Positions 6,662 through 59,179 of a stretch of DNA of 64,000 bases are shown here, in pieces. Origin of the DNA: a virus. Below the pieces are notes generated by a model that worked only from the letters and a program-made list of their open reading frames with translations, was not told where the DNA came from and searched no databases. The stretch lies in IMG/VR virus record IMGVR_UViG_3300029989_000006, one strand, 5' to 3'. The stretch's first letter is position 1. Every line of letters begins with the position of its first letter. The position numbers and the translations under genes were made by a program.

Positions 6662-7132
6662 ATGAAGAGTATTATTGATGAGTTAAGCGATGAACAATTT
6701 GCAGAGGTTATAAACAGTTCTGCAACTTGAAGAGAGATGGAACCTAAATTTGGGTATAAAAATAACATTTCTTCAAATTTAAAAGAAAAGATTAAAACAA
6801 GATGTGAGTTATTAGGATTAGTTTTAAATACTAGAACAACTAATACTACACCTTTAAAAACTAGAGGTAAGAAAGAATTGTTCGATTCTAGAAGTAATTG
6901 ACAGAGTGCTAGAAGTGGTATTACTAAAGATGCTAATAGAACTTATTTTAAACATAAAGAACAGAAATGTTTTATCTGTGGTTATGATAAACATATTGAA
7001 GTTGCCCATATCAAAGCTGTTGCTGATTTTGGTGATTTTGCAACAGTGGAAGAGATAAATGATATTAATAATTTGGTGGGGTTATGTCCTAACCATCATT
7101 GAGAATATGATAATGGATTATTAGTATTATAA
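6662..7132 (+). CDS. HNH endonuclease with 3 in-frame TGA codons (156 aa if TGA=Trp)
   Basis: SAT*REM, RSN*QSARS, CFICGYDKHIEVAHIK...NLVGLCPNHH*EYDNG; TGA at 6728, 6899, 7100; no TGG; missed by the ORF track. Confidence 0.85.
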
Positions 7133-7135
7133 GAT

Positions 7136-7203
7136 CGCGAGGAGGCGGGTGCCCACTGACCCTCATAAGGTTATGTTTTTGAGTTCAATTCTCAACCTCG
7201 CTA
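7136..7203 (+). tRNA. tRNA-Met(CAT), initiator-like, atypical D-arm
   Basis: CGCGAGG/CCTCGCT with 1:72 mismatch, TGACC-CTCATAA-GGTTA. Confidence 0.7.
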
Positions 7204-8298
7204 CTTTCCCTAACTTGGGGAAAAGTTGGCAGATCTCAATTGTCCGACAGCAATTTGTCGTAATAAATATTGCAACTTTTTATTATGTTTTGTTTTAGAA
7301 ACATGGTTTGTCTGACGTTACACAGACAGATGTATCAGTAGGAGTACTGATTGTAACTAAAGACCATTGAGTAAGATCAATGGTCGATAATATTTAAAAA
7401 ATTCCATAGCCTGTGGAATAGGAAGTTGATCCCTCTAGCCTATATCAGGCAGTGTAAACAACCGTTTTTGTTTATTTTTGGAGCGTTAAAAATGAAATAT
7501 GTTTTAACAATTTTTATGGAAGGACTTAGGCAGTTAAAAAATTGTGTTAATCAAGATGGATAAAAGATTTGCAAATCTTCCATCTTGATTTTTAAAATGA
7601 AATTATTAATTATTTATATATTATGGAAACAATTATTATTCCTGCAACAAAACCAAGATTTCCTGCATTAGGAAAATCAAATGATGAGGGTATGGTTGTA
7701 CTATTTTCTAATGAAACTAGTGGCACTGTAATTTCCTCAGGAAAAAGTATTACTGTTGTTGGTTTCTTTACAAAAGATTGGCAACCTGTTACAGATTCTA
7801 TAGTTTGGGAGATTCTCCCAGAAATTACAATTTATTTTAGAACTTAAAAATGAGTAAAAGACAAGACAGAAAAGCAGAAAGAGCTGGAAAGAAAGATAAG
7901 AACGGAATTTCATTAGCTTTATCTAGACCTCAACGTAGGGCAGCAAATAGATTAAACAGAGGAATTAGCCATTACAATGCTTTTCCTAAAAGTCCAGAAT
8001 CAGGACAAGGTAGACAACAACCAGGTTCACAACAACATTGGTAGATGTGGAAGATTTGCACTAATTGTGGGGCAATATATTATGATTCAAATATTTTATG
8101 TCCTAAATGTGGACATTATTCTATAAAAAACAAATAATTAGATTAAAAATGGGAACATTTATTTTATTGTTAGTTAGTGCATATTGTGTATACATTTACT
8201 TGAAGAAAAATCCTGAAAATATGGATGAAAGAGATTCAAAAACTCGTTATAGACTCGGCGAAGAATAGTTTTTAGTGTTAATATAAAAATTTAGTTAA

Positions 8299-8640
8299 AT
8301 GAAACATTTATTGTTTTTAGTGTTTGCAATGTTATTATTTGTGTCTTGTGAAGATACAAGTACTTCTAAGGCTCCCATGCAAATGGAACCTGAGGCATCT
8401 GTCTATGTACAGATTAAACTTAACCATGTAAATGGTGTTGATGTGTTATCAATTGAAAAAATTGTACACAATGAACAAGGTGTAGTTGTAAAAACTATTA
8501 CTAGTATTGATACTATTTCATCTTTGAGCTTGGTTAAAGATACTTTAGCTTTAGTTGATAAGAATGGTGAGCCAACTGACAAAGATTCCATTATGTGGCA
8601 TCCTAAAGATTATTCATTATTTATATCTGTGCAAAAATGA
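8299..8640 (+). CDS. putative lipoprotein
   Basis: signal peptide with lipobox LLFVSC. Confidence 0.7.
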   Translation: MKHLLFLVFAMLLFVSCEDTSTSKAPMQMEPEASVYVQIKLNHVNGVDVLSIEKIVHNEQGVVVKTITSIDTISSLSLVKDTLALVDKNGEPTDKDSIMWHPKDYSLFISVQK

Positions 8641-9209
8641 GAAGATATCTTGGATATATAATCGGAGGTGTTGGTCTTTTATTTTTTGTTTTTGTTCTAT
8701 TTTATTGTTCTACTTCACGTAGGCATTATAGAACAATGGCAGATTATGACCAACAACCAAATTACTACATTGATGATGGAATAGGGTATCAACAAGGAGG
8801 TTATTCTCCTTTTATGATTTTCCCTATAATGTCATTGGATTATTATGGTAGACCTTATTACCATTATAACTACATCTATCGGAGTCATTATGGTTATTAT
8901 AACAATTCTTATGGAGGCCATCGTGTAACTGTGAATCACACAATTATACATAATCGAAGTTTGACTAATTATAGAGCAAGAACTTCTCAACTTCAATCAC
9001 ATCGAGCTCAACAAATTGAAAGACGAAATCTAAACTCTTCAAGAAATGCAAGATCTAATTCTTATACCAAAAGTAAAAGTAATTTTACTCCGACAACAAA
9101 TCGTCGTCAGTCCTCAGGTAGTTCTTCTTCATACAATCGAAGTTCACGTTCCAGTAGTTCAGGTAGTTCATCTCGATCTTCTAGTTCATCCAGATCTAGT
9201 AGACGGTGA
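8637..9209 (+). CDS. membrane-anchored protein with Tyr-rich middle and Ser/Arg low-complexity tail
   Basis: N-terminal TM helix; SSRSSSS tail. Confidence 0.7.
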   Translation: MRRYLGYIIGGVGLLFFVFVLFYCSTSRRHYRTMADYDQQPNYYIDDGIGYQQGGYSPFMIFPIMSLDYYGRPYYHYNYIYRSHYGYYNNSYGGHRVTVNHTIIHNRSLTNYRARTSQLQSHRAQQIERRNLNSSRNARSNSYTKSKSNFTPTTNRRQSSGSSSSYNRSSRSSSSGSSSRSSSSSRSSRR

Positions 9210-9234
9210 TTATAAAATTCTTAAATAATTATTT

Positions 9235-9936
9235 ATGAGTTTAATACCTAAATGGATGCTTGAAAATCCAGAGGATGAAAAACCTATCTCTGGTACTGTT
9301 CCTCAACAACCTATTCAACAAGGTGCTCCTGTAATGAATACTCAAGTATTTGTACAACAAGTACCTGGACGTCCTGTGCAGATTTTTGCTTCTACTCCTT
9401 CTAGTTCCGTGCCATCAAGTGAAGATATTCAAAATATGGTTCAAAAGATCCATAAATATTTGGATTCTATTAACAAACCTGGCATTGACTTTTTGGAGTT
9501 TTGGAATGCTGTATTAGGAACTGATGGTGGTGCTACTCCTAACAATATCAAAACTGCATTTAAAATGATGCAGATGATGACAGGGAATACTATCACGAAA
9601 GAGATATTAATATCTACTGGTAATGCATATGTTAATGAATTAACAGCTGTAATTAATAAAGAAACAACTGCTAAAATTACAATTAAGCAGAATTTACAGA
9701 AACAATTGGAGCAAGAGAAATCTAACCTGGTTAACCAAGCACAAAACTTGGAAGCACAGATAGCTAAATTAACTATTGACCTATCTGATGCAAAAGCTTC
9801 TTTATTACAGATTGATAATAAATACTCTCCTCAAATGCAGGAAGCTGATCTTACAATCTCTACAGGTAATACTGCATTAGGTATTGTAACTGCTGATATT
9901 AATAATTTTATCCAATTAATTCAAACTAATATTTAA
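9235..9936 (+). CDS. coiled-coil protein, first gene of ABC operon
   Basis: 233 aa with C-terminal heptads; stop abuts next ATG. Confidence 0.8.
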   Translation: MSLIPKWMLENPEDEKPISGTVPQQPIQQGAPVMNTQVFVQQVPGRPVQIFASTPSSSVPSSEDIQNMVQKIHKYLDSINKPGIDFLEFWNAVLGTDGGATPNNIKTAFKMMQMMTGNTITKEILISTGNAYVNELTAVINKETTAKITIKQNLQKQLEQEKSNLVNQAQNLEAQIAKLTIDLSDAKASLLQIDNKYSPQMQEADLTISTGNTALGIVTADINNFIQLIQTNI

Positions 9937-11070
9937 ATGTACGAAACAAAAACGATTCAAAAATTGGAAGTACCAGCAGAAATGCAGAATTTACCCATAA
10001 TGCAATTTATTGGTGATTCATTACCTGCATCTACCCAAACACCTGAAGCAAAGAAAACTATATCTAAAATAATAGTATATGGTTCTTTTGTTGCCATTGC
10101 TGCTCTTTTTATTGCTAACCTAAAAACAATTACTGAAACAGTCAGTGGATTGATTGATTTTAGTGTTAAATTGGCTATACTTGGTCTTGTTGCTGGTGGA
10201 TTAGTTCTCATGGCTGTGTTAGGACCTGGGATAATCAATCTTCTTCATAAAGCTGGAGATATTCAGATTTTTAAATGGAGAAAGAAACAAATTGAGGATA
10301 ATCCTATTGAAAGTTTGGAGATGTTAATGCAGGAGCAAGACACTGTATTAAAAGAAGTTGATAAAAAGATCAATGAAGTTAGTGGGACTAGGGAAGGATT
10401 TACTCGTGATGCGCAGGACCTAGATTTAAGTGCTGAAAAGCAATTACAAATAGCTTTGAATCTTGCGAAGGATGCGAAGAAATTATCTGAAAGTGTACCT
10501 GATTTACAGCAAAAGGGATTAACTGAAAAAGCTAATCAAACTATTCGTGATGCTAAAGAAACTACAAATACAGCATATTTAGCAAAGACAGAAGCAATTG
10601 GTAAGAAAGATACTGCAGCAATGTTTGCACAATATTCTAATCAGTTTGGTAAGGTTATTGAAATCCTTAAGGATAATCGTAGTGCATTAAGAATTCAAAT
10701 GAGTGCTACTAAAACCAGTATCAACATGTTGGAACGTCAGTTATCTGCAACCAGTCGTATGAGAAATGCAACTGAAGGATTAGCTGCCGCATTCAATATG
10801 AATGATAGTTATGTTTTCGTTACTGCTATGAATAGTGCAAAAGCTACGATTAGTAATAATGTTGCATCAATTCGTAATAATATACAATTGTTAAATCAAA
10901 ACAAAGCCTTAAATGGTGGATCTACATCTGCAAACAAAGCAGAACTTGATTTATTTATCCAGCAAATGGAACAAGGACAAATTAAGAAACTGAATGTTTC
11001 TGAGATTGTAGACACAGAACATGACCTGACAACTGCTGAAAAAGTAGATGCAGGATTCAGTATTCTTTAA
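9937..11070 (+). CDS. two-TM coiled-coil protein (PspA-like inferred)
   Basis: two hydrophobic helices then long helical region. Confidence 0.75.
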   Translation: MYETKTIQKLEVPAEMQNLPIMQFIGDSLPASTQTPEAKKTISKIIVYGSFVAIAALFIANLKTITETVSGLIDFSVKLAILGLVAGGLVLMAVLGPGIINLLHKAGDIQIFKWRKKQIEDNPIESLEMLMQEQDTVLKEVDKKINEVSGTREGFTRDAQDLDLSAEKQLQIALNLAKDAKKLSESVPDLQQKGLTEKANQTIRDAKETTNTAYLAKTEAIGKKDTAAMFAQYSNQFGKVIEILKDNRSALRIQMSATKTSINMLERQLSATSRMRNATEGLAAAFNMNDSYVFVTAMNSAKATISNNVASIRNNIQLLNQNKALNGGSTSANKAELDLFIQQMEQGQIKKLNVSEIVDTEHDLTTAEKVDAGFSIL

Positions 11071-11107
11071 AAATTAAATATTTTAGATAACTTTTTCAAA
11101 AAGATTT

Positions 11108-12937
11108 ATGGAAACTACAACAAATTCTGCTCCTAAAAAGTTGAGCAAAAAAGGTAAAATGTTTATTATAATCATAGGGATTTTAATTATCTCTGGATTA
11201 TTTGCAGTTTTTAGCCCAGAAGTCAAGACTTATCTTTCAAAATCAGTGTCCTCAATTTCTGTGGATAAGGATCTTGTAAATAATACAATGACTTCTGCGA
11301 AAATTCCCTTCCCATCTGAAAAACTTACAGCAAATCCTACTCCTAAGGTTAGATTTCTTGGATATATGTGGAATGGTGCAACTGCCTGGAATGCTTCTAA
11401 TGGTGGACCTTTAACTACAAAAGGATCATTAATGGAAGGTGCTGGTGTTAATCTGGAATTAGTTCGACAGGATAATTTTGATAAGATTAGAGATGGAATA
11501 TTATTAGGTTTAAAAGAATTTAATGCAGGACAGAATTTTCCAACGACTGGTTATTCTGGTGCATGGTTTATGGGTGATGGTGGGGCATACTTTGTTTCTA
11601 CAACACAACCAATGATTGATAAAATCTATGGTAAAGGTAAATATCATGTGCAAGTAAATTGTGCATCTGGTTTATCATGTGGTGAAGATAAAGTAATTGG
11701 TTCTGCTGCAATGAAATTAAATCCTCAATTATTAAAAGGAGCTGTAATGTCAGCTGTTATTGGTGATGGAGATTGGGTTATTGCAGTCAACTATTGTGGC
11801 CAACTTGGAATTCCAGTAAATCCTGATCCAACAACTTATGATCCTAATGCATGTAACTTTGTTCAAGCAGAAGAAAGTGATTATATTAAAGCAGCACAAA
11901 TGCTTATTAAATCACAAAAAACTGGGTGGACAGTTCCTTTAAAATTAATGCAAAATGGTAAAAGAACTAATACTGTAGTTAATAAGAAAATTGATTGTAC
12001 CACAACTTGGTTTCCTGGTGACAAAATGGTTTATGATGAATTACCAGGATATGTTGATATTATTTCTACAAAAGAGTATAATAACCAAATGGCTTGTGTA
12101 TTAGTCACGATTACTGAATGGTCACAACAAAATTCAACATTATATCAAAATATGTTGAAAGCAATGTGTACAGCTGGTAATCAAATTAAACTTTATGATG
12201 ATTGGTTAAAATATGGATGTGCATGTAATGCAAAAACATTTAAATTTCAGGATGCCAATTATTGGTATAAAGCATTTAAAGGATATGTCTGGACTGATGT
12301 AACTGGTAGTACTGGTGATCTTCCACGCAATGTAGGAGGTACAAGAGCATTTAATTATGCAGATAATGAGCAATATTTTGGATTAAATGGGCCGTCGAGG
12401 TATGAATTAATTTATACTAAAGTTGCAAGTTATTTAGATGATTTAAATCCAATGGGTTACAAGGAAAATGTTGAAAGAACAATTCCATATAGTGAAGCTG
12501 TGAATTTTACATCATTGCAATCTATTAAATCAACTCTAAATACTGGTTCTGCTTACCAAGCAAACTATTCCTCAAACACAGGACAAGTTGTTGCAAAAGC
12601 TAATTATCATATTACGTTTAAAACTGGATCAGATGTTATTGAACCTGATGGTTTACAAGTTATCAAATCTATTTATGGAGCATTATCTTTTTCGGAAGAT
12701 ATGAAAGTCTCTGTAATTGGACATACTGATAACATTGGAAATCCTCAATCTAATTTGGATCTATCTAAACGGAGAGCACAGTCGGTTTTAAGAGCCTTAA
12801 TTTCATTAGGTGCTTCTAAAAATAGATTCGATACTGTCGATGGCATGGGAGATACTTCTCCTATTTCTGGGAATACAAATTCCAATGAAACAGAAAGATC
12901 GGCCAATCGTAGGGTTGAAATCAGTCTATTGAAATAG
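11108..12937 (+). CDS. ABC substrate-binding protein fused to C-terminal OmpA-like peptidoglycan-binding domain
   Basis: N-terminal TM anchor; C-terminal GHTDNIG..NLDLSKRRAQSV...ANRRVEI. Confidence 0.85.
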   Translation: METTTNSAPKKLSKKGKMFIIIIGILIISGLFAVFSPEVKTYLSKSVSSISVDKDLVNNTMTSAKIPFPSEKLTANPTPKVRFLGYMWNGATAWNASNGGPLTTKGSLMEGAGVNLELVRQDNFDKIRDGILLGLKEFNAGQNFPTTGYSGAWFMGDGGAYFVSTTQPMIDKIYGKGKYHVQVNCASGLSCGEDKVIGSAAMKLNPQLLKGAVMSAVIGDGDWVIAVNYCGQLGIPVNPDPTTYDPNACNFVQAEESDYIKAAQMLIKSQKTGWTVPLKLMQNGKRTNTVVNKKIDCTTTWFPGDKMVYDELPGYVDIISTKEYNNQMACVLVTITEWSQQNSTLYQNMLKAMCTAGNQIKLYDDWLKYGCACNAKTFKFQDANYWYKAFKGYVWTDVTGSTGDLPRNVGGTRAFNYADNEQYFGLNGPSRYELIYTKVASYLDDLNPMGYKENVERTIPYSEAVNFTSLQSIKSTLNTGSAYQANYSSNTGQVVAKANYHITFKTGSDVIEPDGLQVIKSIYGALSFSEDMKVSVIGHTDNIGNPQSNLDLSKRRAQSVLRALISLGASKNRFDTVDGMGDTSPISGNTNSNETERSANRRVEISLLK

Positions 12938-12947
12938 ATTGTCTTAT

Positions 12948-13754
12948 ATGGTAAAAAGTGATTCCGCATTAGTTCGATCATTTCGTCCTTTTGAGAAATT
13001 AACTGATAGTCAGACTTCATTATGGTATGTCTTGTGGCTAATTATATTAATTGCAGGTTGGATTAAAGTATCTGTTTATTCAGATGTTAAAATTATACCA
13101 TCTCCTTTAATGGTTTTAGGAGCAACTAAGAATTTATTTTCTGAAGGACTTGTAAGACAATTTGGTGCAAGTTTGGGATTGTGTGGTTTATCTACGCTTT
13201 ACGCATTGTTGGTATCACTTACAGTGGCGTATTTGTCCCCATTACCAATAATGAAGCCTCTGGCTCAAAGTATCAGTAAGTTAAGATATGTTCCTATGAT
13301 TGGGATCACTTATTACCTTACTGAACTTCAGCTTACTGGTAGACCATTGCAAGTAACAATTCTTTCCTTGTTTATGACTGTTTATTTTATAACTTCTATT
13401 ATGTCTATGATTGGTGATATTCCTCCAGAGGAGTATGATCTTGCAAGAACAATGGGATGTTCCCGATGGGAAATGTTATGGATAGTTGTTATTAAAGGAA
13501 GAATGGATTTTGTGATTGAAATATTAAAACAAAATTTAGCAATTACTTGGATGATGTTTGTATCAGTTGAGGTATTAGTTATCTCTACTGGTGGTGTTGG
13601 AATTCTTATGAAAAACTCGGAAAAAACTGGTAATCAGGAAAGAATATTTGCGATTCAAATTCTTATATTTTTATTAGGAGTTTTAACTGATTATTTATTA
13701 TCATTATTAAGATCCAATATGTTTAGATATTCTAAAACAGTAAAAGAATTATAA
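12948..13754 (+). CDS. ABC transporter permease (SsuC/TauC-like)
   Basis: multiple TM helices; IPSP; EAA-like loop EEYDLARTMGCSRW. Confidence 0.85.
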   Translation: MVKSDSALVRSFRPFEKLTDSQTSLWYVLWLIILIAGWIKVSVYSDVKIIPSPLMVLGATKNLFSEGLVRQFGASLGLCGLSTLYALLVSLTVAYLSPLPIMKPLAQSISKLRYVPMIGITYYLTELQLTGRPLQVTILSLFMTVYFITSIMSMIGDIPPEEYDLARTMGCSRWEMLWIVVIKGRMDFVIEILKQNLAITWMMFVSVEVLVISTGGVGILMKNSEKTGNQERIFAIQILIFLLGVLTDYLLSLLRSNMFRYSKTVKEL

Positions 13755-13756
13755 TC

Positions 13757-14593: not shown

Positions 14594-15019
14594 GAATAAG
14601 TTTATAACTGAATTTGTTGAAAAATATGGAAAATTGGATTTTACAAATATTTTTGTAGTAATTTTACAAAAGTTTTATAAAATCTAATTTCCATTGTTTT
14701 ATCTTTAAAAATTAAAAGGATTATGATAAATTTATTTAAGAAGAATCCAATCTTATTTAGCTTTGCTGTATTAATTATTTTAGCACTAGGTCTTACCTTG
14801 CTTAAGGTTATTTTTTCAGTAATTACATTTCTTTTACCAGTAATAATCATTTTATTGATTGTTGCTGTGGGTATTTTACTTTATATTTATTATAAGTAAA
14901 TAATATATGGCTAGGTGATGAAATGGCAGCCATGATAGACTTAGAAATGCCGCAAAATACTTTTAAATCTATAATTTAAATTTTTTTAACTTTTAACTGT
15001 TTGTCATAAATATTTTTTG

Positions 15020-15027
15020 TATCTTTG
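15020..15027 (+). promoter_or_regulatory. Bacteroidota-type -7 promoter element (TAnnTTTG) upstream of intron HNH
   Basis: TATCTTTG 18 nt before ATG 15046; same octamer at 60847. Confidence 0.5.
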
Positions 15028-15045
15028 TGTATTAATATATTTAAT

Positions 15046-15603
15046 ATGAAAAGTAGAAAATACACCGATGAACAATTCATAGAAGCTGCTAAAAGTAGTT
15101 TATCTATGGCTGAAATGATGAGAACCCTTGGACTTTATGTTGGAGGTTCTAATTATGAAACAGTAAGAAGAAAGATAAAAGAATTTAATTTAGATGTAAC
15201 ACATTTTACAGGAGCTGCCTGAAATCAAGGAGATAGGTATAAACCTGTTAAACCAGCTCAATCTTTAGATGAAATTTTAGTAGTGAATTCAACTTTTGTG
15301 AGTACAAACCACTTAAGAGAAAGATTACTAAAAGAACACGTAAAAGAGTGTAAATGTGAAATATGTAATAATTCTGAATGATTGTCAAAACCAATATCTT
15401 TGGAATTACATCATATTAATGGAATAAAAGATGATTTAAGGATTGAGAATTTACAAATTCTATGTCCCAATTGTCATTCCTTTACAGATAATTATAGAGG
15501 AAAAAATATAGGTTTGAGTGCTCAGGAAGAGATTCCTGATGTAGAATATCTGAATATCGGCGAATCCTTAACATGTAATGATGATGGTAACACCGAGGCA
15601 TAG
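15046..15603 (+). CDS. intron-encoded HNH endonuclease with 2 in-frame TGA codons
   Basis: HFTGAA*NQG (15220) and CEICNNSE*LSKPISLELHHING...NLQILCPNCH (15379); joins two ORF-track fragments in one frame. Confidence 0.85.
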
Positions 15604-15892
15604 GAAGTAATGTTCCAGCCGTAGAGACTAGATGCAGATACATCTGAAAAGATGAAGACATAGTCCAGACTACAAACAGAAATGGTAACGAAAGTTATAG
15701 TAGTAAGAAAATCTATTGATCCGTAAGGGTCGTGCAGGTTCAATTCCTGTTCTAGCTACATAGTTCCCTGCAAATCGTGGAATCATAGGAGTATTCAGGT
15801 ATAACTATGGCAAAGCCTGTGAGCGTATAAGGTTTAAACAATAAATCAATACAGGTAAAATCGTGACAGCTTGGAAAGACAGCAAATTATAT

Positions 15893-15964: not shown

Positions 15965-15972
15965 CTAATACA

Positions 15973-16587: not shown

Positions 16588-16652
16588 CGATGTTCGTTGA
16601 TATTTTTAATAAAAATGAAGAAGACCCGGCTTCAATGCCGGCAGCTCCACTA
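16588..16652 (+). ncRNA. ssrA: tmRNA acceptor piece (permuted two-piece tmRNA)
   Basis: GAC-CCGGC-TTCAAT-GCCGG-CAGCTCC-A; CAGCTCC pairs with downstream GGGGCTG giving G3.U70; GATGTTC pairs with GAACATC. Confidence 0.8.
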
Positions 16653-16932
16653 AATTCTAAAGTGATCGGAATGGAATTGCACCGATTTATGCCAGTGCCT
16701 TAAGTGTGAAATAACACAGGTTTGGGTGCAGCTTTAGAATTTTAAAATTTTCCAAGTAATTGAAAAGTTAGGGGCGTAGATTCCTGCTTAGGTTATATAG
16801 TTATATGTAATCGTCTGCGTCTAAACCTAGAATGCCTGTACCCTTGCATCCATGTTAATTAAATGGAGAAACTCGGATAAGTTCAACAGGTATATCATGA
16901 TATAAAAGGGTAATTGAATAAATGGTACATTC

Positions 16933-17078
16933 GGGGCTGACAGGTTATTGATTCGCATATAATAGACTAATGGAGAACATCAAGCTATGTAAATGGCAAC
17001 AAACAATTCAAAGCTTTTGGAGCTCAACCAGTTAGACTGGCAGCTTAAGCCGTACTTGCCCCACGTTATAGGGGCTAC
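16933..17078 (+). ncRNA. ssrA: tmRNA coding piece; tag (A)GNKQFKAFGAQPVRLAA at 16995-17048
   Basis: GGGGCTGACAGGTTATTGA 5' end; tag ends in LAA-TAA; 3' end approximate. Confidence 0.85.
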
Positions 17079-17080
17079 AT

Positions 17081-17153
17081 GGACTTGAAGCTAATCTGGT
17101 GAAAGCGTGGCCCTGAAGAGGCTGAGAGGTTGGATCAAAACCAACTGAGTCCA
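17081..17153 (+). tRNA. tRNA-Phe(GAA)
   Basis: TGGCC-CTGAAGA-GGCTG; GGACTTG/TGAGTCC. Confidence 0.75.
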
Positions 17154-20929: not shown

Positions 20930-21468
20930 TTTCTGCCTAGGGTTACCTAGTATTAGGATAATTACAAAATAATTATGGTAACTTGCGTTACCTAACCCAC
21001 AAATTTTTATTTACTAAATCTATAGATTATGAGAACAGTAGTTTTAACTATTCAAGAATTTTTTAATTTTAAACTTTTAGCCAAAAAGTTTCATTTTTGT
21101 TACCAATGTGAAATTAATTCACCAAATGTTAATGTTAGTGCTGATTCAGAAATTCTTAATAATTTAGGATATGAATAGTTATATTTATTTAATAATTTTG
21201 ATGATTGTATACGTAATCATTTCAATAGTTATTAATACAAAAGAAGCTAGACGTGCTCGGGAAAATCATATTAGGGATTTAGAATATCAAATAAAACTTA
21301 TTAATTTAGTTCGTGTCTTAAATGAGTATAAAGAATTTTTAGAAAAACAATATAATGAAGCAATGAATATTGCAAGTATACATCATTATGATTGTACTGA
21401 AGAAAATATACAAAAAGGTATACAACTAAGAGAAAAAATTAAAGAATTGGAATTAAAAATATTTGACA

Positions 21469-22548
21469 ATGAACAAAGCAGTAATTGATTTAGTATTTGG
21501 TGATGGAGGTAAGGGAGTAGTAACTAATTGGTTGGCTATGAAGGATCCTTCTGGTGTAGTTATTCGGTATTCTGGAGGACAGCAAGCAGGGCATACAGTA
21601 GTAAAAGATGGAGTTCACCATGTTTTTTCCAATTTTGGTTCAGGAACTTTAAATGGTAATCCAACTTATTGGTCAGAGTTCTGTACTGTAGATCCAGTTG
21701 GAATTATTAATGAATTAGAATTATTACAGAAAAAAGGATTTACTCCTAATATTATGTATCATTCTAAATGTCCTATTACTACTTCTTTAGAAAAGAAAAG
21801 AAATGAATCCTGCTACCGAGATCATGGTACTTGTGGTGTTGGTGTTGGATTAACTTGGGAGAGGGAATCAAAATTTTATTCATTATTAATGGAAGATTTA
21901 TATCATCCAAAAATTTTTGATATAAAGATTAAAATGATTGAAGAATATTATAATGATAAAGTTAGTGATGTTTTTAGATATTGTGTAGAAAAGCTTATTA
22001 CGTTATCTAACATTATGATTTATGATGATGCATATAAAAGATATAAAAATAAAATATTTGAAAGTTCCCAGGGTTTATTGTTAGATAAAGATTATGGATT
22101 TTTCCCACATGTAACTCGTTCTAATGTTGGAACTACTAATATTTTATCCATGGCTGATGATATGGAAGTTTTTCTTGTGACCAGGGGTTATCAAACAAGA
22201 CATGGTAAAGGTCCGATGACCAATGTTGGACTTCTTCCTACTCTGAATATTAAAAATGTAGAAACTAATGTTTTCAACAAATTTCAAGGAGAATTTCGTG
22301 TATCTTTGTTGGACTTAGATTTATTGAAATATTCTATCGCAAAAGATCCTTATATTAACAAACATAGGGATAATCTCGTAGTAACTTGTTTAGATCAAAT
22401 GGAAAATGATTTTAGAGTAACTCATCGAGGAAATATTTCTAATTTTACTGATAAATTAGAATTTGCTTCATTTATTGGTGAAATACTTGAAGTTTCCAAT
22501 GTATGGATAAACTGTTCTGAAGAATCTAATCTTGAAAAGGTATATTAA
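21469..22548 (+). CDS. divergent adenylosuccinate synthetase-like (PurA family) protein
   Basis: FGDGGKG, RYSGGQQAGHTV, HGTCGVGVG, FESSQGLLLD, FPHVTRS, TRHGKGP. Confidence 0.85.
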   Translation: MNKAVIDLVFGDGGKGVVTNWLAMKDPSGVVIRYSGGQQAGHTVVKDGVHHVFSNFGSGTLNGNPTYWSEFCTVDPVGIINELELLQKKGFTPNIMYHSKCPITTSLEKKRNESCYRDHGTCGVGVGLTWERESKFYSLLMEDLYHPKIFDIKIKMIEEYYNDKVSDVFRYCVEKLITLSNIMIYDDAYKRYKNKIFESSQGLLLDKDYGFFPHVTRSNVGTTNILSMADDMEVFLVTRGYQTRHGKGPMTNVGLLPTLNIKNVETNVFNKFQGEFRVSLLDLDLLKYSIAKDPYINKHRDNLVVTCLDQMENDFRVTHRGNISNFTDKLEFASFIGEILEVSNVWINCSEESNLEKVY

Positions 22549-23054: not shown

Positions 23055-23168
23055 GGGGAAGTAGCCAAATGGATAGGCAATTGAATTAGGATCAATCAAA
23101 AAAATAAGTAATTTTCTAAGTTACTTACAATACCTACAAAAATGTAAGTTCGAATCTTACCTTCCCCA
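23055..23168 (+). ncRNA. tRNA-Leu(TAG)-like scaffold with helix-ACAAU module in the variable region
   Basis: GGGGAAG/CTTCCCC, ATTGA-ATTAGGA-TCAAT, insert AAGTAATT/AGTTACTT-ACAATACC. Confidence 0.75.
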
Positions 23169-26023: not shown

Positions 26024-26563
26024 ATGCGAAATATAGAACAATATGGTAATGAATTAACAATTACTGGAGTTTTAGTTGGTAATGCTAAAGAGACTGAAAT
26101 AATTATGTTTCCAAGTGAAGTACTTTATTCCCCAGTAGTTTCCACCCTTTATCCAACTCAAGAAGAATTGTTAAAAATATTCAATCAAATGGATACTTTA
26201 GCAATTACTAATAATGCTAAGGTTGTTCTTCGTAAATCTCAAAGACAAATTGATCAAGATATTTCTTGGCAAGTCTTTAGAAGAGATGATTTTACCTGTG
26301 CATATTGTGGTAATAATCATACTCCAATGACAGTAGATCATTTAGTTCTTTGGGAAAACTTAGGAGATTCTGTTCCTGGTAATTTATTATCAGCTTGTAG
26401 AAAATGTAATAAGACTAGAGGAAATCAACCATTGGATGAATTCTTAGAATCATATTATTACAAAACATTGCCTAAACATGGATATGGATTATTAAAAGAA
26501 ACAATTTTGATAATGTATGAAAAAGCAAAACAATTACCTTTAAGAAAAGAAAGGTCAAGATAA
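26024..26563 (+). CDS. HNH nuclease (standard code)
   Basis: VFRRDDFTCAYCG...TVDHL...NLLSACRKCNKTRG. Confidence 0.85.
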   Translation: MRNIEQYGNELTITGVLVGNAKETEIIMFPSEVLYSPVVSTLYPTQEELLKIFNQMDTLAITNNAKVVLRKSQRQIDQDISWQVFRRDDFTCAYCGNNHTPMTVDHLVLWENLGDSVPGNLLSACRKCNKTRGNQPLDEFLESYYYKTLPKHGYGLLKETILIMYEKAKQLPLRKERSR

Positions 26564-26703: not shown

Positions 26704-26790
26704 GGGGGGAACACTTCGGTTAGTGATCTAGTATCTAAGATTAGATACTTATAATACATTAAAAATTGGGTTCGATTCCCAGTTCCCCCG
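26704..26790 (+). ncRNA. tRNA-like scaffold with anticodon arm replaced by helix-AUAAU module
   Basis: GGGGGAA/TTCCCCC, TGGG-TTCGATT-CCCA T-arm, AGTATCTA-AGAT-TAGATACT-TATAATAC. Confidence 0.7.
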
Positions 26791-30047: not shown

Positions 30048-30512
30048 ATGAATACAAAAAGGATTGGAAATGTGGGAGAGGCAGTGACTATTGCAGAATT
30101 TGTAAAAAGACAAATTCCAATATATGTTTCTTTCGGGGAAAATGAGCATTGTGATTTAATTGCAGATTTTAATGGTAAATTAAATAGAGTTCAATGTAAA
30201 ACTTCTCAAATAATAAAAGATAATAAATTAATTTGAAGTATCTCCACTACTACAACTGGAGTGGGTGGTAAAGCAACTAGATATAAATATACCAAAGATG
30301 ATGTAGATTATTTTGCGTTATATAATATAGAAGCAAATTTGTTATTATTAGTTTCCATTGATTCCATTTTAAATGATACTTATATAAGTTTTAATTATCC
30401 TTTTAAAAAGAATACAAATGGAGCAATTGCCCACAATTGAGAAGAATTTATTTTAGAAAAAGTAATAAATATGGAGAGTATAATCAGTGAGGATACTGAG
30501 ACTGCCTGCTAA
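30048..30512 (+). CDS. PD-(D/E)XK endonuclease with 2 in-frame TGA codons; 3' end overlaps tRNA-Ser
   Basis: GNVGE...CDLIAD...RVQCKT...DVDYFALY; TGA at 30234 and 30438; TAA falls in the tRNA anticodon loop. Confidence 0.8.
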
Positions 30513-31980: not shown

Positions 31981-32064
31981 GGAAGTATGACAGAGTGCTA
32001 ATGTACCTGACTTGAAATCAGAGGTGCCAGGAATGGTGCGTGGGTTGAACCCCTACTACTTCCT
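31981..32064 (+). tRNA. tRNA-Ser(TGA)
   Basis: CTGA-CTTGAAA-TCAG, variable arm. Confidence 0.75.
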
Positions 32065-34597: not shown

Positions 34598-35492
34598 CAA
34601 ATATTTAAACTATGAAGAAAGCAATTTTTAAGCTAAACGGAGGACAAGGTGCATTACTCTGTTCTCAATGTCATGTTATCATTACAACAGGAAGATATTT
34701 TACAGATAAACAATGGTTAGCAGCGAAAGGAGAAATTAAATTACCTCCACAATTCTGTGATAGATGTACAAGTAACCATTTATATAAGAAATTAGAAGAT
34801 AAAGTTTATAAATATCCTACTAAAAGTAAATATGGTTTTCATAATGATGAATTAGAAACTCTTTTAAAAGATTATCCTGATATTAATATGGATAAATTTA
34901 ATGAAGCCATGATGGGTAATACCTGTATGATAGATGAAGGAGGAGTAATTATGTATCATTGTGATATATTTGTCGCTTTAAAATGTGGAATAGAAAACAG
35001 AGAATTAACTATTGAAGAATGGGACTAATTATGGAAGAGAAAAAATGTGCAAGTTGTAGAATGATACACTTATTTATAGTGTGTCCATTTTGTGGATCAA
35101 TTGTATCTATTCCTATGGAAGATTGAAAATGAAAATTTTAAAATTTGAATGGGATAATGCTATTGGCTGTGAATGGAATGGTAAAAGTGTTTTAATAGGC
35201 CAATATTTACCAAATAGGGAAAATAATGAAATCTCACATATAGAGATTTATGGTTTTGCTTTAAGTATAGCAGATATAAATAAAGATTTTCAATTACATG
35301 AATATTCTTGTTTTGGTGGTAATATTTGCGGTGAAGTATCTGAGATTTCAAAAGAAGATGCAAGAAAATTATTGTATGAAGAAATTGATAAATCTTTAAA
35401 TATTTTATTTGATCAAGGTGAAATGAATATGATTAATCAAAAACTTAACGTCGCAGAATCAGTTTATGAAGATAACGATGAAGATTGAAAAC

Positions 35493-35687
35493 TATTAATA
35501 ACTTAAAATGGATTCGAGTGCCATTGCGAAAATGTCCCTACCGTAAGTAAACACTGATGTCGACAATTAACAGAAGTTTAACTCGGAGGAAATCTATAAC
35601 ATATAAGGATTAGAAATCTAATATGAAAGAAGAAAGTACAGAACATAAGACTTTAATGGGGATTATGTACGGGAGAGTTATTAATAG
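35493..35687 (+). ncRNA. structured ncRNA candidate
   Basis: 13-bp terminal stem CTATTAATAACTT/GAGTTATTAATAG enclosing several hairpins; no ORF. Confidence 0.4.
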
Positions 35688-35698
35688 TTTAAATTAAT

Positions 35699-35776
35699 AG
35701 GAATGTATTCCCTCTGCCTGATAAGCAGTAGAAAGGATAATTTGGTTACATATGGGTTCAAGTCCCATCTTTCCTA
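35699..35776 (+). tRNA. atypical tRNA-Ile(GAT)-like RNA with no D-arm 5' of the anticodon
   Basis: CTGC-CTGATAA-GCAG, ATGGG-TTCAAGT-CCCAT, AGGAA/TTCCT. Confidence 0.55.
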
Positions 35777-35941
35777 CACTCGTGTTGCCCTACCTCGGGC
35801 ACGTATAAAATAATAGATTCTAATAAGCAACCTAGTTGAGGCTTCGTGAACGTTTTGATAATATTCACCAGCACGTACTGGAAAAAAATTATCCACATAT
35901 CCTATTATAGGCCTTAGTAAAACTATAATGAGGATATACAT

Positions 35942-51501: not shown

Positions 51502-51505
51502 ATTA

Positions 51506-51853: not shown

Positions 51854-52214
51854 TATTTATGCAGGATTAGGTGGTGGTTTTGGTAGCAACTTAGAAGAAG
51901 TTGAAAGTGAAGTAGATTTTGCTTGTGAATCAGATGCATGGGAAGCAGCTTGGGAAGCAGCTTGTGAGATATATGAAGGTTATATTGGAACAGATGATAG
52001 TATAAGATCTGTTGCTCAAATTATTGAGGATGATCTTAAAACTGATCCTGAGTATGCTGAAGCAACTGAAGAAGAACTTGAAAAAGTTGCAATAGAAATC
52101 TTTGAAGAAGAAAGAGAAGGTTGGCTTGAATATAATGTCGAGGAATGCCTTGAAGATGAAGATAATATGTGGGAAGATGATGTAGAAGAAGAGGAAGAAG
52201 AGGAGGATTTATAA
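51843..52214 (+). CDS. highly acidic protein
   Basis: Asp/Glu-rich 123 aa with poly-E tail. Confidence 0.7.
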   Translation: MLYNIYAGLGGGFGSNLEEVESEVDFACESDAWEAAWEAACEIYEGYIGTDDSIRSVAQIIEDDLKTDPEYAEATEEELEKVAIEIFEEEREGWLEYNVEECLEDEDNMWEDDVEEEEEEEDL

Positions 52215-52216
52215 TA

Positions 52217-54199: not shown

Positions 54200-54564
54200 T
54201 AATAAAATAAAATTATGAAAAAAGGTGATTTAATAAAACTTACCAAAGTAAGTGATGATTTTTTCAACGGAAATCATCCAAATGGTATTTATGAAGGTTA
54301 TACAAGAATTGGAGAACTTCAGGATGATATTACAGTTGGAAAACGTTGTCATATTGTTCACCCACTTACTGGCGAATATTTATCAACCAGTGATGTTGTT
54401 AGTTTTGATGGAGAATTTATGATAACAACATATTCTACTTATAAAGCTGAATTGTTAAAAGATTCTGAGGAAGATAAAAATTCTGCAATTTTATAAAAAT
54501 TTTTTTAGTACTTTTATACTCTTATACCGTTTAGAAAATGTATGTAAAAATGAAATTATAAAGA

Positions 54565-57153
54565 ATGGGTTTAAGTAGGACTGGGCGTCAAAAACTTGGA
54601 GTAAAGAAATGGATGGAATTTGGTGGAAGAGGCACGTTTGTATGGGCTACTGGAGTTGGAAAAACTCGTGGAGCTATAATGGCAATTAAATCTTTTCTTA
54701 CAAAAAATAAAGGAAAGACTATAGTAGTTATAGTTCCAACTGAAGTTTTAAAACTTCAATGGATTAAAGAACTTGTTAAGTTTGAGTTATTCTTTGATGT
54801 ATCTATAGAGATTATTAATTCTGCTGTTAAAAAAACAGATAAGATTGATTTTATAATACTCGATGAGTGTCACAAATATGCCGGAAACCATTTTTATTCA
54901 ATCTTTACTCAAAGAACTCCGAAATTAATTCTGGGATTATCTGCTACTTTTGAAAGATTAGATGGTGCACAAATTTTATTGGAACAATATTGTCCAGTTT
55001 GCGATGTAATTACTTTACCTGAAGCAATTGCAAATAAATGGGTATCTCCATATAAGGAGTATAAAGTTTTAATAGAAGCACCAGATATTGAATTGTATAG
55101 AGAATATAATCAAAAATTTATCAATTCTTTCAGCTTCTTCAATTTTGATTTTGATACTGCAATGAAATGCTTGACTGATATTGTTTATAGAAGAACTTTT
55201 GCCAAAACAATGGGACTTCCACCAGGAGAGATTGACGCAGTTACTTTCACTTGGGGAAGAATGTTAAAAGCAAGAAAATATTTTGTTATGGATCATCCGA
55301 AAAAGGTGGAGATAACAAGAAAAATTCTTGATTATAGACCTAATAGTAAAGCAATTACATTTTCTCCAACAAAGAAACAGGCAGATGAAATCAAAAGAGG
55401 ATATGTAGTTCATTCTGGTAAAACAAAGAAAAAGAATGCAATAACAATTGAAGAATTTTCTAAGTTAAAAACTGGTGTATTACATGGAGTTAAAGGATTG
55501 AATGAAGGTACTGATATTGATGGTATAAATCTTGCAATTATCTTATGTAATAACTCATCTACTCAGGAAAAAACTCAAAGGGTAAAATTTTAAATTTATC
55601 CCATTATAATTTTTATATTTTTATAAAAACATATAATATACAAAGTCTTTGAATTATTTTGTGTAAATTTATAGTTATTAATTTAACTAATATTTATTAT
55701 GAATACATCAAAACTTTATGTATTAAAAGACCCGGAAACATTAGAAATTCGTTATGTCGGGATAACAATCAGAACTTTACAAAAAAGATTATCAGGACAT
55801 ATTTGCGATGCAAAATGCAGACCTGAACTTAATTACCATAAAATAAATTGGATAAAATCTATTTTAAAAAAGGGATTAAAACCTATTATTGAATTAGTTT
55901 TAGAATATGATTCTTTAGATTTAGCAAAACAAGCAGAAATGGATTATATTGCTAAATATAAACAAGAATATAAATTAACAAATTGTACTATTGGGGGAGA
56001 CCATTTAGGAGAAAGATCTCATTCTCGAGAATCTATACTTAAAAAATCTACAACAAGAGCTATTTGTCAATATAATATTTTTGGAGAATTACTTAGGGAA
56101 TTTGAAATTACTGAAGATGCTGCTAGATTTTTAAATTTATCATCTGCTTCTAAAATAACAATGTGCTGTAAGAAATTAAGACCTCATAGTCATGGTTATA
56201 TATGAAGATATAAAGGAGATGAATTAGGTGATATATCTAATATTGATGTCTTTTCTTTATCGTTTAATAGATTGGTTCAATTTGATTTAGAAGGTAATTA
56301 TATTGCAGATTATGATTCTTATTTAGCTGCATCTCTTATTGTTGGAGATCATTCTAAAGGAGGGAATATTGTTTCTGCATGTAAAGGAATACAAAAACAT
56401 TGTAAAGGATTTCAATGGAAACTAGAACCTAATTTTGAATATTTAGATGAATCATTTCTTTTAATAAATAATGATCCATCAATTAAAAAAAGTCTTATAG
56501 GTAAGTCTGGTAAAAAAGTAAATCAATATGATATAAACAATAATTTTTTAAAAACTTTTAATTCTATTTCAGATGCTTCAATAGAAGTATTAGGTACAAT
56601 TAATGGCAGAAAAAAAATAGTTGAATGTTGTGAAGATTTTGATTTAAAATATAAAAATTATAAATGGCAATACTGCCCACTAGAAGAGTAATTTTCTAGA
56701 AAAAATATTCCTGAATATCGGTGAATCCTTAACGTGTAATGACGATGGTAATACCGAGGCATAGGCTACACTAAAGTGTAGATTCAGCCGTAGAGACTTA
56801 AATGCAGGAACTCCTAGAAATAGGATGAAGATATAGTCCAGACCACAAACAATAAATCAGTAAGAATTCCATGGGAGGTGAGATATGCATGTCAAGTCCT
56901 ACAAGTCTGATGATTGGTGATGAAAATTATAGTGGTACGAGGTCGAGTGATTAGATTTGAAGAAAATAAAGAAGCTGAAATATTTACCTTAGTAATAAAA
57001 GGTACAGTAGAAGAAGCATGGTATAATACTTCCACAAATGGAAAGAATTATATAGAGATTACTGAAGAAGAATTAGATATAATTCTAGCAGGAGGTGAGT
57101 TGGAAAACTTGGAAAGAACTGCAGAAAAAAGTGATGTATTATTTAGGTTATAA
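54565..57153 (+). CDS. SF2 helicase, spliced (exons 54565-55583 and 56940-57153)
   Basis: ATGVGKT, DECH, SAT; splicing restores motif VI QRV|GRVIR. Confidence 0.9.
55584..56939 (+). mobile_element. group I intron in helicase motif VI
   Basis: U| start, G| end; core CTGAATATCGG...CAGCCGTAGAGACT...AAGATATAGTCC. Confidence 0.88.
55699..56691 (+). CDS. intron-encoded GIY-YIG-like endonuclease with NUMOD1 repeats, 1 in-frame TGA
   Basis: LYVLKDP..IRYVGIT...RL..H; three QY/FD..G repeats ending GYI*RY (TGA 56203), GFQWK, NYKWQY. Confidence 0.82.
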
Positions 57154-57419
57154 TTATGACAGTACAAGAATTAATTGATGAATTGCAATTAGTAGATGAT
57201 AAAACTATGGAAGTTTTAGTATATAATTGTTCAGATGGTGAGAATATGGTTATTGAAAATATTGATGTTTTAGATGGCCATGTTGATTTAAATATGGAAT
57301 ATTAGATCAAGTTTACTTATAGATAATTTTTATTAACAATATGAATTACCCAATTTAGTTAAATATCCCATAACGGATTAATTACCCAAAGTAAGTAAGT
57401 GGTTCAAAATACAGCATAA

Positions 57420-58034
57420 ATGCAACATTTTGAACTATCTCTAAATGAAGAGATTAATGTTTACATTAACAGTGGTATGACTCCTACTGAACTTTTTATT
57501 CTAAGGTTGCTATTTTTGGCGGCTGATGGAGATCAACGATATTTAATTAATTATATATCAAATATCTCTGATGGTAAGAAAATCTTAAGACAAGTTTTAG
57601 AATCATTAAAAGTAAAAAAAGTCATAAACTCCACCTTTAACATTCCTAAAGAAGGTGAAGCTTTAAATTTTAAGAATATTCCTTTTAATAAGGTAACTCT
57701 TAAAACATACATTAGGGAATCCAATGAATTAGGTAAAGAATTTTTCGATAATTATCCCATGTTTGTATCAATTAATGGGAAAATGTGTAGTTTAAGAAAT
57801 TTTACAAAAGGAAATTTTCAATCATTAGAACAGTTTTGTATTCATTATTCTGCACAAATTAAAAATTGTGGCGTAACTCATGAACGTATAATGGCTGCAG
57901 TTACCTTTGGAAGGGAAAATAATTTAATCCATTATACTATTTTAGAATTTATTGCCTCTCAGAAATGGATAGAATTAGAACACATAAAAAATTCTGACAA
58001 TATTAATGGCTATAACAACATGGAGTTATTATAA
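57420..58034 (+). CDS. hypothetical replication-region protein
   Basis: 204 aa upstream of DnaB-like gene. Confidence 0.7.
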   Translation: MQHFELSLNEEINVYINSGMTPTELFILRLLFLAADGDQRYLINYISNISDGKKILRQVLESLKVKKVINSTFNIPKEGEALNFKNIPFNKVTLKTYIRESNELGKEFFDNYPMFVSINGKMCSLRNFTKGNFQSLEQFCIHYSAQIKNCGVTHERIMAAVTFGRENNLIHYTILEFIASQKWIELEHIKNSDNINGYNNMELL

Positions 58035-58036
58035 AT

Positions 58037-59179
58037 ATGAAAAAATTAACAACAGAAGAATTTATAGATAAAGCAATTAAAATACATAGTAGTACTTATG
58101 ATTATTCAAAAGTTGTATATCAAAATACTAAAACTGCAGTTAATATAATTTGTCAGAAACATGGAGAATTTTTACAAAATCCTGTAATACATTTAGGAGG
58201 TTCAGGATGTCCTAAATGTTGAGGAAATCGATGCACATCAAAAGAATCTTTCATAGAAAAAAGTAACATTATACATAAAAACAAATATGACTACTCAAAA
58301 GTGATTTATTTAGGAAGTAAGGAAAAAGTATGTATAATTTGTTTAGAACATGGAGATTTCTGACAAACTACTAATAATCATTTAAAGGGAAAAGGTTGTC
58401 CTGTATGTGGTAGATTAAAATGTGATCTAGCAAGAATTAAATCAAAAGATTCTTTTATTGATGATTGCCACATAATTCATAATTATAAGTATGATTACAC
58501 TTTAGTAAACTATAAGACTAGAAAAGATAAAATTAAAATTGTCTGCCCTATTCATGGAGAGTTTATACAAGAAGCCAGTAGTCATTTAGCAGGACATGGT
58601 TGTCCTTTATGTAGCTGAGAAATTTTATCTGAAGATAGGGCTTTCTCTTGGGAGTTTGTTAAAGAACAGTGTAAGGAAATTCATAAAGGTTTATATAGTT
58701 ATCCTAATCAAGAATATAAAAATAGTAGATCTAAGATTGAAATTATCTGTAAAAATCATGGTGTATTTTTACAATCAATCACGAATCACCTACAGGGACA
58801 AGGTTGCCCTATTTGTAGATCTTCTAAAGGAGAACTATTGATTCACAACTGATTGAAAGAAAATAATATTCCTTTTAGAACTCAATTTGAATTAATTACA
58901 ACTGAAATTGCTAGAAATACTAATTTGATGAAGATTGATTTCTTTGTTAAATTTAATAATAAACAGTATTTTATAGAGTTTGATGGGATTCAGCATTTTC
59001 AATATGTCCCTATTTTTCATAAAGGAGGAATTATTGATTTTGAAAAAGAACAGAGAAGGGATAAAATTTTAAATGAATTTTGTGAATTGCATAAAGATAA
59101 AATAACTTTAGTTAGATTCAATTATAAACAAAATAATGAAGAAATAATTAAAGAATTAAATAAAATATTTATAAATTAA
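58037..59179 (+). CDS. free-standing endonuclease: four Zn-ribbon repeats plus PD-(D/E)XK/Vsr-like domain, 4 in-frame TGA codons
   Basis: repeat YxY..ICxxHGxFxQ...HL.G.GCPxC x4; IDFF...IEFDGIQHF; TGA at 58220, 58361, 58616, 58850. Confidence 0.85.

Follow-up and report, generated by a model that had tools for sequence, protein, structure and literature searches.

In-frame TGA codons in the endonuclease genes of the standard-code arm of a crAss-like phage: a probable case of suppressor-dependent translation

Introduction

The question raised by the 64,000-nucleotide stretch of virus DNA analyzed here (part of IMG/VR record IMGVR_UViG_3300029989_000006; "the window" below is this whole stretch) is why its genes for endonucleases should be interrupted by TGA codons while the genes around them use TGA as a stop. 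An initial annotation of the window had flagged five endonuclease genes of different folds with TGA in frame, and offered two ways to understand them, either as genes whose expression is gated by opal suppression or as imports from relatives with genetic code 4 that are silenced here. We propose that these genes, although they lie in the early arm of the genome, are written in the code of its late arm, such that their full-length translation probably depends on a suppressor tRNA and is thereby delayed. Coordinates are those of the window unless given as genome coordinates, which refer to the complete virus record.

Results

Endonuclease genes with in-frame TGA

All five of the flagged open reading frames (ORFs) are open under code 4, in which TGA alone is read differently, and they hold 3 + 2 + 2 + 1 + 4 = 12 in-frame TGA codons with no TAA, TAG or frameshift lesion, exactly as the initial annotation had described them. 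The Pfam domains agree with the folds that it had assigned, and are HNH_2, HNH, PDDEXK_5, GIY-YIG with NUMOD1, and DUF4379 treble-clef repeats. Its remark that TGA stands where tryptophan would be expected, as in CPNHH-W-E, SE-W-LSKPI, GYI-W-RY and HGDF-W-Q, is upheld by alignments with homologues, in which 11 of the 12 TGA codons fall on tryptophan columns, and the codon counts bear out its statement that the first three genes lack TGG. A residue other than tryptophan for TGA was considered and is ruled out by the invariant tryptophan columns.

The first gene, on the plus strand like the others, encodes an HNH_2 endonuclease of 156 amino acids (6662..7132, ending in TAA) with TGA at 6728, 6899 and 7100 and no TGG, and all three TGA codons correspond to invariant tryptophan columns among 14 homologues of 53-69% identity. 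The second is an HNH endonuclease of 185 amino acids situated in a tRNA-Leu intron (15046..15603, with the code-4 frame starting from 15025, and ending in TAG); it has TGA at 15220 and 15379 and no TGG, and the corresponding residues are W59, which is tryptophan in 10 of 12 homologues, and W112, which is invariant. Directly after a tRNA-Gly gene lies the third, a PD-(D/E)XK (PDDEXK_5) endonuclease of 154 amino acids (30048..30512; TGA at 30234 and 30438, TGG 0), both of whose TGA codons are opposite tryptophan in the nearest homologues and whose W131 is tryptophan in most of them. The GIY-YIG/NUMOD1 endonuclease of 330 amino acids in the helicase intron (55699..56691) has a single TGA, at 56203, together with three TGG codons; the TGA lies inside a G[FY][IV]W[RK][YF] motif whose tryptophan is spelled TGG in the paralogues, and in the orthologue at the same site of a related locus, L032 (66% identity), four of four tryptophan codons are TGA. 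The fifth gene encodes a zinc-ribbon repeat (DUF4379/DUF723) endonuclease of 380 amino acids with a Vsr-like C-terminus (58037..59179), in which TGA occurs at 58220, 58361, 58616 and 58850 and TGG once. It is free-standing and fits exactly between orf204 and dnaB, and it belongs to a DUF723/Vsr-like family whose members carry DUF723 and in some cases DUF559 (PF04480), several of them being named very-short-patch-repair endonuclease in their source records. Three of its four TGA codons are on consensus tryptophan columns, and the fourth is opposite Tyr, Met or Ser.

A sixth recoded gene, for a GIY-YIG protein, was found in the plus-strand arm outside the window (genome 151987-152718; L007:17488-18219), with three internal TGA codons and a further TGA directly before its TAA. 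Its 3' end overlaps by 11 nt the start of an endolysin-like gene of the Peptidase_M15_4 family (genome 152708-153223; L007:18209-18724), which has no TGA. The stop codons of all six genes are TAA or TAG, and the catalytic motifs are kept in the alignments of the zinc-ribbon, HNH_2 and HNH homologues. Decay is excluded because 11 of 12 TGA codons are on tryptophan columns and there is no TAA, TAG or frameshift, and we take the five flagged genes and the sixth to be intact genes for putative homing endonucleases.

Two arms and two codes

The window comprises bases 70614-134613 of one 172,188-bp virus record with a G+C content of 28.9% and a completeness by CheckV of 100%. From about 62 kb to about 155 kb the long ORFs occupy the plus strand, and on either side of that segment they are on the minus strand. 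The minus arm codes for the terminase large subunit TerL (phrog_6681, E = 2.8e-62) and the portal protein (phrog_6547, E = 1.4e-50), while the genes of the plus arm, which takes in the window, include about 25-30 for tRNAs and others for ClpP, RNase H, DNA polymerase A and two helicases, one DEAD/ResIII and one DnaB-like. The guess of a crAss-like phage in the initial annotation proved sound, as a tblastn search with TerL gave 115 phage records that are almost all crAss-like (phages of Bacteroides and Flavobacterium, and uncultured crAss phages) at 25-45% identity, with the closest record of the phage collection reaching 45% and named Crassvirales about 29%. A megablast search of one window segment against that collection gave no match, which indicates that the lineage is distant from deposited phages.

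Read with code 4, the minus arm opens into a string of long abutting genes encoding up to 2899 amino acids, with 1-23 in-frame TGA codons each. The total for this late arm is 171-189 in-frame TGA codons, and across 37 late genes there are 171 TGA versus 98 TGG. TerL and the portal gene contain nine and four TGA codons, respectively, and both are open under code 4. When TerL is aligned with its relatives (25-45% identity), two of its nine TGA codons are on tryptophan, and at three more the nearest relative, with 45% identity, has Phe or Tyr. On the plus arm, in agreement with the observation that core genes end in TGA with ATGA overlaps, 29 of 126 ORFs terminate in TGA, and the overlap at 8637-8640 is real. 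Hence we read TGA as a stop in the plus arm and as tryptophan, via the tRNA(UCA) encoded by the phage, in the minus late arm. The original claim that in-frame TGA is confined to mobile endonucleases holds for the plus-strand, standard-code arm and fails for the genome as a whole, because the late arm is recoded.

Eight genes of the late arm outside the window (genome 26169-38598, minus strand) have no TGA at all and up to 10 TGG each. They include four adjoining genes of 362-548 amino acids. The eight are flanked by heavily recoded genes, and recoding of the late arm is therefore patchy. PHROGs gave no function for these TGA-free genes.

A suppressor tRNA encoded by the phage

The tRNA(UCA) that opal suppression would call for is located on the minus strand at genome 60008-60081, 10.5 kb upstream of the window, where it is found both by ARAGORN and by the Rfam tRNA model (56.2 bits versus a gathering score of 29). 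Its discriminator base is G73, the same as in the tRNA-Trp(CCA) of the phage (36383..36458, plus strand), and G73 is an identity element for tryptophan in bacteria. The gene lies upstream of TerL among TGA-poor neighbors, namely those for a helix-turn-helix protein, an HNH protein, PhoH and a PD-(D/E)XK nuclease, and with such surroundings the tRNA could be expressed without itself needing suppression. Directly downstream of it is an HNH endonuclease gene without TGA, a paralogue of the HNH gene in the tRNA intron with 34% identity over 67 amino acids, and the tRNA and this gene, which together span genome 59420-60081 (minus strand; L001:4421-5082), may form a tRNA-plus-endonuclease cassette.

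A second tRNA-like gene, with a CTA anticodon of the amber-suppressor type and a long variable arm, is present at 26704-26789 but is reported by ARAGORN at relaxed settings only; it scores 32 bits with the Rfam tRNA-Sec model. At many genes a TAG stop is followed by TAA within 1-4 codons, as is described for phage Lera (PMC12386605). A search for genes with in-frame TAG readthrough gave none that was convincing. With Rfam we also obtained tRNAs that are missed by ARAGORN at default settings, for Phe(GAA), for Ser(TGA) and one with an insert of about 42 nt, and the extra RNA matches are located among 16591-17048, 17081-17153, 23055-23168, 31981-32064 and 35047-35777. A match to a permuted tmRNA was below threshold (40.3 bits versus a gathering score of 47). 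With introns allowed, ARAGORN proposes a second candidate split tRNA at 35047-35777 around an ORF (35081-35488) for which no family match was found.

Distribution of in-frame TGA in the plus arm

To define how far the pattern extends, every code-4 ORF of the plus arm with a TGA was listed, and N-terminal extensions and true stops were set aside. Mid-gene TGA is found in six genes only, all of them nucleases (the five flagged genes and the GIY-YIG gene at genome 151987-152718), and it is absent from about 119 other plus-arm genes. All six TGA-bearing genes are among the eight endonuclease-like genes of about 132 in this arm (hypergeometric P = 4e-9). Functional assignments came from Pfam or PHROG scans of about 55 window ORFs of roughly 120 amino acids or more, so that a small TGA-free endonuclease gene could be missed. 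The two endonuclease-like genes of the window without TGA are an HNH (PF01844) gene of 179 amino acids (26024..26563, plus strand, TGG 2) and an intron ORF of 193 amino acids (60881..61462, plus strand, TGG 6) that is an HNH endonuclease by phrog_3377. Three more endonuclease-like genes without TGA are found on the minus strand near the suppressor tRNA.

In the six nucleases TGA makes up 16 of 21 tryptophan codons (76%), and the A-ending share of the other two-fold codons is 76-88%. A codon share equal to the A-ending share suggests that these genes have evolved for a long time with TGA as tryptophan.

Recurrence in related loci and phages

With the DnaB-like protein we retrieved 17 related loci. 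In eight of them orf204 and dnaB abut, and the zinc-ribbon gene is missing from the junction. The GIY-YIG intron of the helicase gene is absent in five relatives and present in L032. On this comparison we classify the zinc-ribbon gene and the GIY-YIG intron as mobile insertions. The relatives have inserted ORFs of their own that interrupt PolA, DnaB or the helicase. Pfam recognizes an endonuclease domain, either LAGLIDADG or GIY-YIG, in nine of them, and eight of the nine carry 1-5 in-frame TGA codons and few TGG; the TGA-free one is a LAGLIDADG ORF in L033. The exons and neighboring genes of these inserted ORFs have no TGA, and the same is true of the helicase exons, PolA, DnaB and orf204, unlike the ORFs inserted into or beside them.

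The DnaB-like protein of the window (59179-60258) has only 59% identity to its counterpart in L025, the closest relative, while its neighbors are 88% (PolA), 91-97% (helicase), 79% (orf204) and 85% (orf109) identical. The divergent DnaB may be the result of allele replacement by co-conversion beside the inserted zinc-ribbon endonuclease gene.

Many large phage contigs contain members of the HNH_2 family to which the gene at 6662 belongs, and here the recoded codon varies with the phage. The closest homologue (69% identity) is also TGA-recoded. A 165.5-kb crAss-like phage with 13 in-frame TAG codons in TerL has an HNH_2 homologue in which two in-frame TAG codons are on glutamine columns and tryptophan is TGG, and in a near-identical contig of 167.9 kb with a TAG-bearing HNH_2 homologue the nine neighbor genes carry none. 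The homologue of a 176-kb phage with three TGA codons in TerL has TGA on a tryptophan column, and that of a 189.8-kb standard-code phage has neither TGA nor TAG in frame. It would appear that recoding of the nucleases arises in place and matches the late code of the resident phage, and the fact that the HNH_2 codon tracks the code of the phage argues against simple import from a code-4 donor.

Introns of the window

Three genes of the window, those for the helicase, a tRNA-Leu and a 232-amino acid protein, are split by group-I-type introns. Exon 1 of the helicase gene (DEAD/ResIII; 54565..55583, plus strand) has no TGA and ends in U at a point through which the intron-less L025 allele continues. 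The intron of 1356 nt (55584..56939), delimited by exon comparison and core motifs, ends in G and holds the GIY-YIG ORF, and exon 2 (56940..57153) has 95.7% protein identity to the C-terminus of the uninterrupted L025 allele. The intron has a J8/7-P7-like motif, GAAGATATAGTCC.

The tRNA-Leu(UAA) is of class II, and its 5' exon (14909..14942, plus strand) ends in U34. It is followed by an intron of 765 nt that ends in G (14943..15707) and by a 3' exon with the long variable arm and discriminator A (15708..15759). ARAGORN reads the exons, joined in silico, as tRNA-Leu(taa), with the splice site between U34 and A35, and independently finds a split tRNA at 14909-15759 when introns are allowed. The intron core, with the J8/7-P7 motif GAAGACATAGTCC, is homologous to that of the helicase intron: about 160 nt are common to both at 85-93% identity (56711-56855 versus the end of the HNH gene at 15046 and the sequence just after it), and the 6-bp P3 pairing covaries between the tRNA-Leu and helicase introns (TATCTG/CAGATA versus TTCCTG/CAGGAA). 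The last 18 or so codons of the HNH gene overlap the intron core. This shared core suggests the transfer of an intron between a gene for a tRNA and one for a protein. The non-coding segment 56711-56765, after the GIY-YIG ORF, would encode LNIGESLTCNDDGNTEA followed by a stop, which is the tail at the C-terminus of the tRNA-intron HNH protein, and this tail is conserved as protein among HNH homologues; the segment may be what is left of an HNH ORF that the GIY-YIG ORF has displaced, or RNA core sequence with a second role as coding sequence.

The third intron, of 936 nt (60590..61525, plus strand), has the core motifs GGTTCAACGACTA and AAGATATAGTCTGAAC, again follows an exon that ends in U and itself ends in G. 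It splits the conserved 232-amino acid gene into exons at 60262-60589 and 61526-61896 and holds the TGA-free HNH-like ORF at 60881-61462. The pattern of an exon ending in U and an intron ending in G is thus seen in three of three introns, and joining the exons restores the helicase, tRNA-Leu(UAA) and the 232-amino acid gene. The Rfam group I model RF00028 had no match in the window at E <= 1, for which the ORF inserts of about 0.5-1 kb may be the reason, and for the helicase intron neither P1 nor the internal guide sequence could be assigned by eye. The same model scores the PolA introns of the relatives L035 and L040 at 72-103 bits, and these have core motifs in common with the window introns, including GGTTCAACGACTA and AAGATATAGTCTGAAC. 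Hence the window introns are likely group I.

Other genes

The window also contains a gene for a PurZ-like adenylosuccinate synthetase (21463-22548; phrog_1211, E = 5.8e-51), and elsewhere in the genome there is a gene with a dATP/dGTP diphosphohydrolase N-terminal domain (PF18909; genome 153228-153611; L007:18729-19112). Together with the family A polymerase these are a hint that the phage may swap adenine for 2-aminoadenine in its DNA.

Discussion

A proposed suppressor-dependent gate for selfish endonucleases

As judged from their codons, the nuclease ORFs need opal suppression if they are to be read to full length, a suppressor tRNA is supplied by the phage, and the surrounding genes are independent of it. 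To that extent the gating by opal suppression that the initial annotation had put forward stands, on the strength of the tryptophan columns, the tRNA(UCA), the recoded late arm and the TGA stops around the nucleases; its timing is what we infer. Before tRNA(UCA) builds up, ribosomes would halt at the first TGA of each nuclease ORF, and after it has built up the full-length nuclease would be made, that is, late, provided that the suppressor becomes effective only past the early phase. For the ORFs carried by introns, the TGA stop would also bar ribosomes from the ribozyme core during splicing of the host gene or tRNA. In the case of the HNH gene of the tRNA-Leu intron, whose 3' end reaches into that core, termination at codon 59 or 112 would spare it.

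The use of the late code explains why nuclease genes in the early arm of recoded gut phages look broken, and annotation pipelines that assume one code per genome will mis-call either the recoded nucleases or their neighbors. More tentatively, it is possible, although we would not yet count on it, that across crAss-like phages with two codes the selfish endonucleases, of at least five folds and both free-standing and intron-borne, regularly adopt the late code of the resident phage (TGA as Trp or TAG as Gln) as a selected translational gate, with their host genes keeping the standard code. Until the suppressor appears, such a gate would hold nucleases and ribosomes away from the early replication genes and from the intron ribozymes, that of the tRNA intron included, and it would amount to a general rule for the coexistence of mobile elements and phages rather than to a single case. 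With the present extension to a crAss-like lineage, to several nuclease folds and to both TGA and TAG, the genetic code as a timer for selfish elements becomes testable by comparison and experiment.

Several observations weigh against the delay that we propose. Two endonuclease-like genes of the window have no TGA, one of them intron-encoded with six TGG codons, and neither does the LAGLIDADG ORF of L033, so that gating cannot be obligatory. One TGA of the 12, that for W62 of the zinc-ribbon gene, is off a conserved tryptophan column, and in TerL only two of nine TGA positions match tryptophan in the nearest relative. A TGA share at mutational equilibrium would also be expected from neutral drift. 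Lastly, we infer both the timing of tRNA(UCA) and nuclease synthesis and the benefit of a delay.

In the leading alternative, translation of the nucleases does depend on the suppressor and the resulting delay has no selected function. In a genome of 29% G+C with an opal suppressor, changes from TGG to TGA would be harmful in genes that are needed early and harmless in selfish endonucleases, which have only to function at some stage of the cycle and would therefore drift to the late code. We consider such tolerated drift rather unlikely, although much is consistent with it: in the six genes TGA takes the same share (76%) as A takes over G in other two-fold codons, TGG and TGA are swapped freely between orthologues (one of four tryptophan codons is TGA in the GIY-YIG gene of the window and four of four in that of L032), some endonuclease genes are wholly without TGA, and TAG at the glutamine columns of the HNH_2 family in a TAG-recoded phage would be expected under either suppressor. 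Yet none of the approximately 119 other plus-arm genes, dispensable-looking small ones included, has gained a mid-gene TGA, and a selected delay has a precedent in T4, for intron-borne and some free-standing endonucleases (PMC2988022). By sequence alone, a delay under selection and drift that is tolerated cannot be told apart: drift is in keeping with the TGA share at equilibrium and with the exceptions that lack TGA, and the absence of mid-gene TGA from about 119 other plus-arm genes fits both.

Two further explanations are rejected. Transfer among TGA-recoding phages is plausible given that the closest HNH_2 homologue is itself TGA-recoded at 69% identity, and the elements could have come from relatives or hosts in which TGA is tryptophan throughout, to become untranslatable passengers here. 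Against this, the genes are readable with the tRNA(UCA) of the phage, whose late arm is recoded, there is no decay by TAA, TAG or frameshift and the catalytic motifs are conserved, and the HNH_2 family takes TAG for glutamine where the phage recodes TAG and has neither codon in a standard-code phage. We therefore regard the import and silencing suggested in the initial annotation as very improbable. That the genes are plain pseudogenes with nonsense mutations that are TGA by accident is hardly credible, as nothing speaks for it beyond the code-11 stops themselves, while 12 of 12 stops are TGA (probability about 2e-6 if the three stop codons are equally likely), 11 of them are on tryptophan columns, there are no frameshifts, and the pattern is repeated in relatives. 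A suppressor-dependent delay of nuclease translation thus accounts best for the window, and it can be set beside what is known from other phages.

Comparison with known systems

The phage resembles the crAss-like phages described by Yutin et al. (2021; PMC7886860) and the Zeta-group phage Lera (PMC12386605), for which late-gene stop-codon reassignment is reported. The common features are genomes of 145-192 kb with two opposed gene blocks, TGA as Trp or TAG as Gln mostly in late genes, suppressor tRNAs and many other tRNAs, and a replication block dense in introns, inteins and homing endonucleases. Lera is described there as having both tRNA-Sup(TCA) and tRNA-Sup(CTA) (PMC12386605), and Yutin et al. 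show a PolB with TGA in both the exons and the intron ORFs (PMC7886860). That endonuclease ORFs are the sole recoded genes of a standard-code block is not stated in the passages of PMC7886860 and PMC12386605 used here.

Closest to the gate that we propose is the intron endonuclease of Agate phages, in which in-frame stops were proposed to delay production until late infection (Borges et al., bioRxiv 10.1101/2021.08.26.457843). In both cases an early gene of a gut phage with TGA recoding houses an endonuclease gene, and TGA is preferred over TGG as the tryptophan codon. The Agate work reportedly appeared later in Nature Microbiology, in 2022. The Agate case concerns one gene family in another phage clade, whereas here the phage is crAss-like and the six genes represent four or five folds (HNH_2, HNH, PD-(D/E)XK, GIY-YIG and zinc-ribbon/Vsr-like), with LAGLIDADG added by the relatives. 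Also unlike the Agate case, the genes are free-standing as well as intron-borne, one of them in a tRNA intron, and TAG serves as the recoded codon in a related phage.

The outcome that we predict is known from T4, where I-TevI, I-TevII, I-TevIII and segB, and likewise mobE of phage Aeh1, are translated late although they are embedded in early or middle transcription units (PMC2988022). Gibb and Edgell (2010), going by the title as cited in PMC2988022, report that delayed translation of I-TevI is needed if splicing is to be efficient. The mechanism differs, since the T4 endonucleases rely on hairpins that hide the ribosome-binding site on early transcripts and on late promoters (PMC2988022), in contrast to the block proposed here, an in-frame TGA relieved by a suppressor tRNA. 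The predicted sparing of the tRNA-Leu intron core nevertheless follows the same logic as the hairpins of I-TevI, segB and Aeh1 mobE (PMC2988022).

The host gene of that intron has a counterpart outside phages. A group I intron is found in the tRNA-Leu(UAA) of cyanobacteria and plastids, and the site in the phage gene, between U34 and A35, is the classical site of that intron. Unlike the cyanobacterial and plastid intron, the present one is phage-borne, contains an HNH ORF and has a core that is kin to the helicase intron of the same phage, and its splicing is a prediction. In sum, crAss-like phages were already known to have recoded late genes, suppressor tRNAs and an abundance of introns and endonucleases, and a code-gated endonuclease has been proposed once; what is new is the crAss-like setting of such a gate, the breadth of folds, the free-standing genes and the tRNA-intron ORF, and the tracking of TGA and TAG across relatives.

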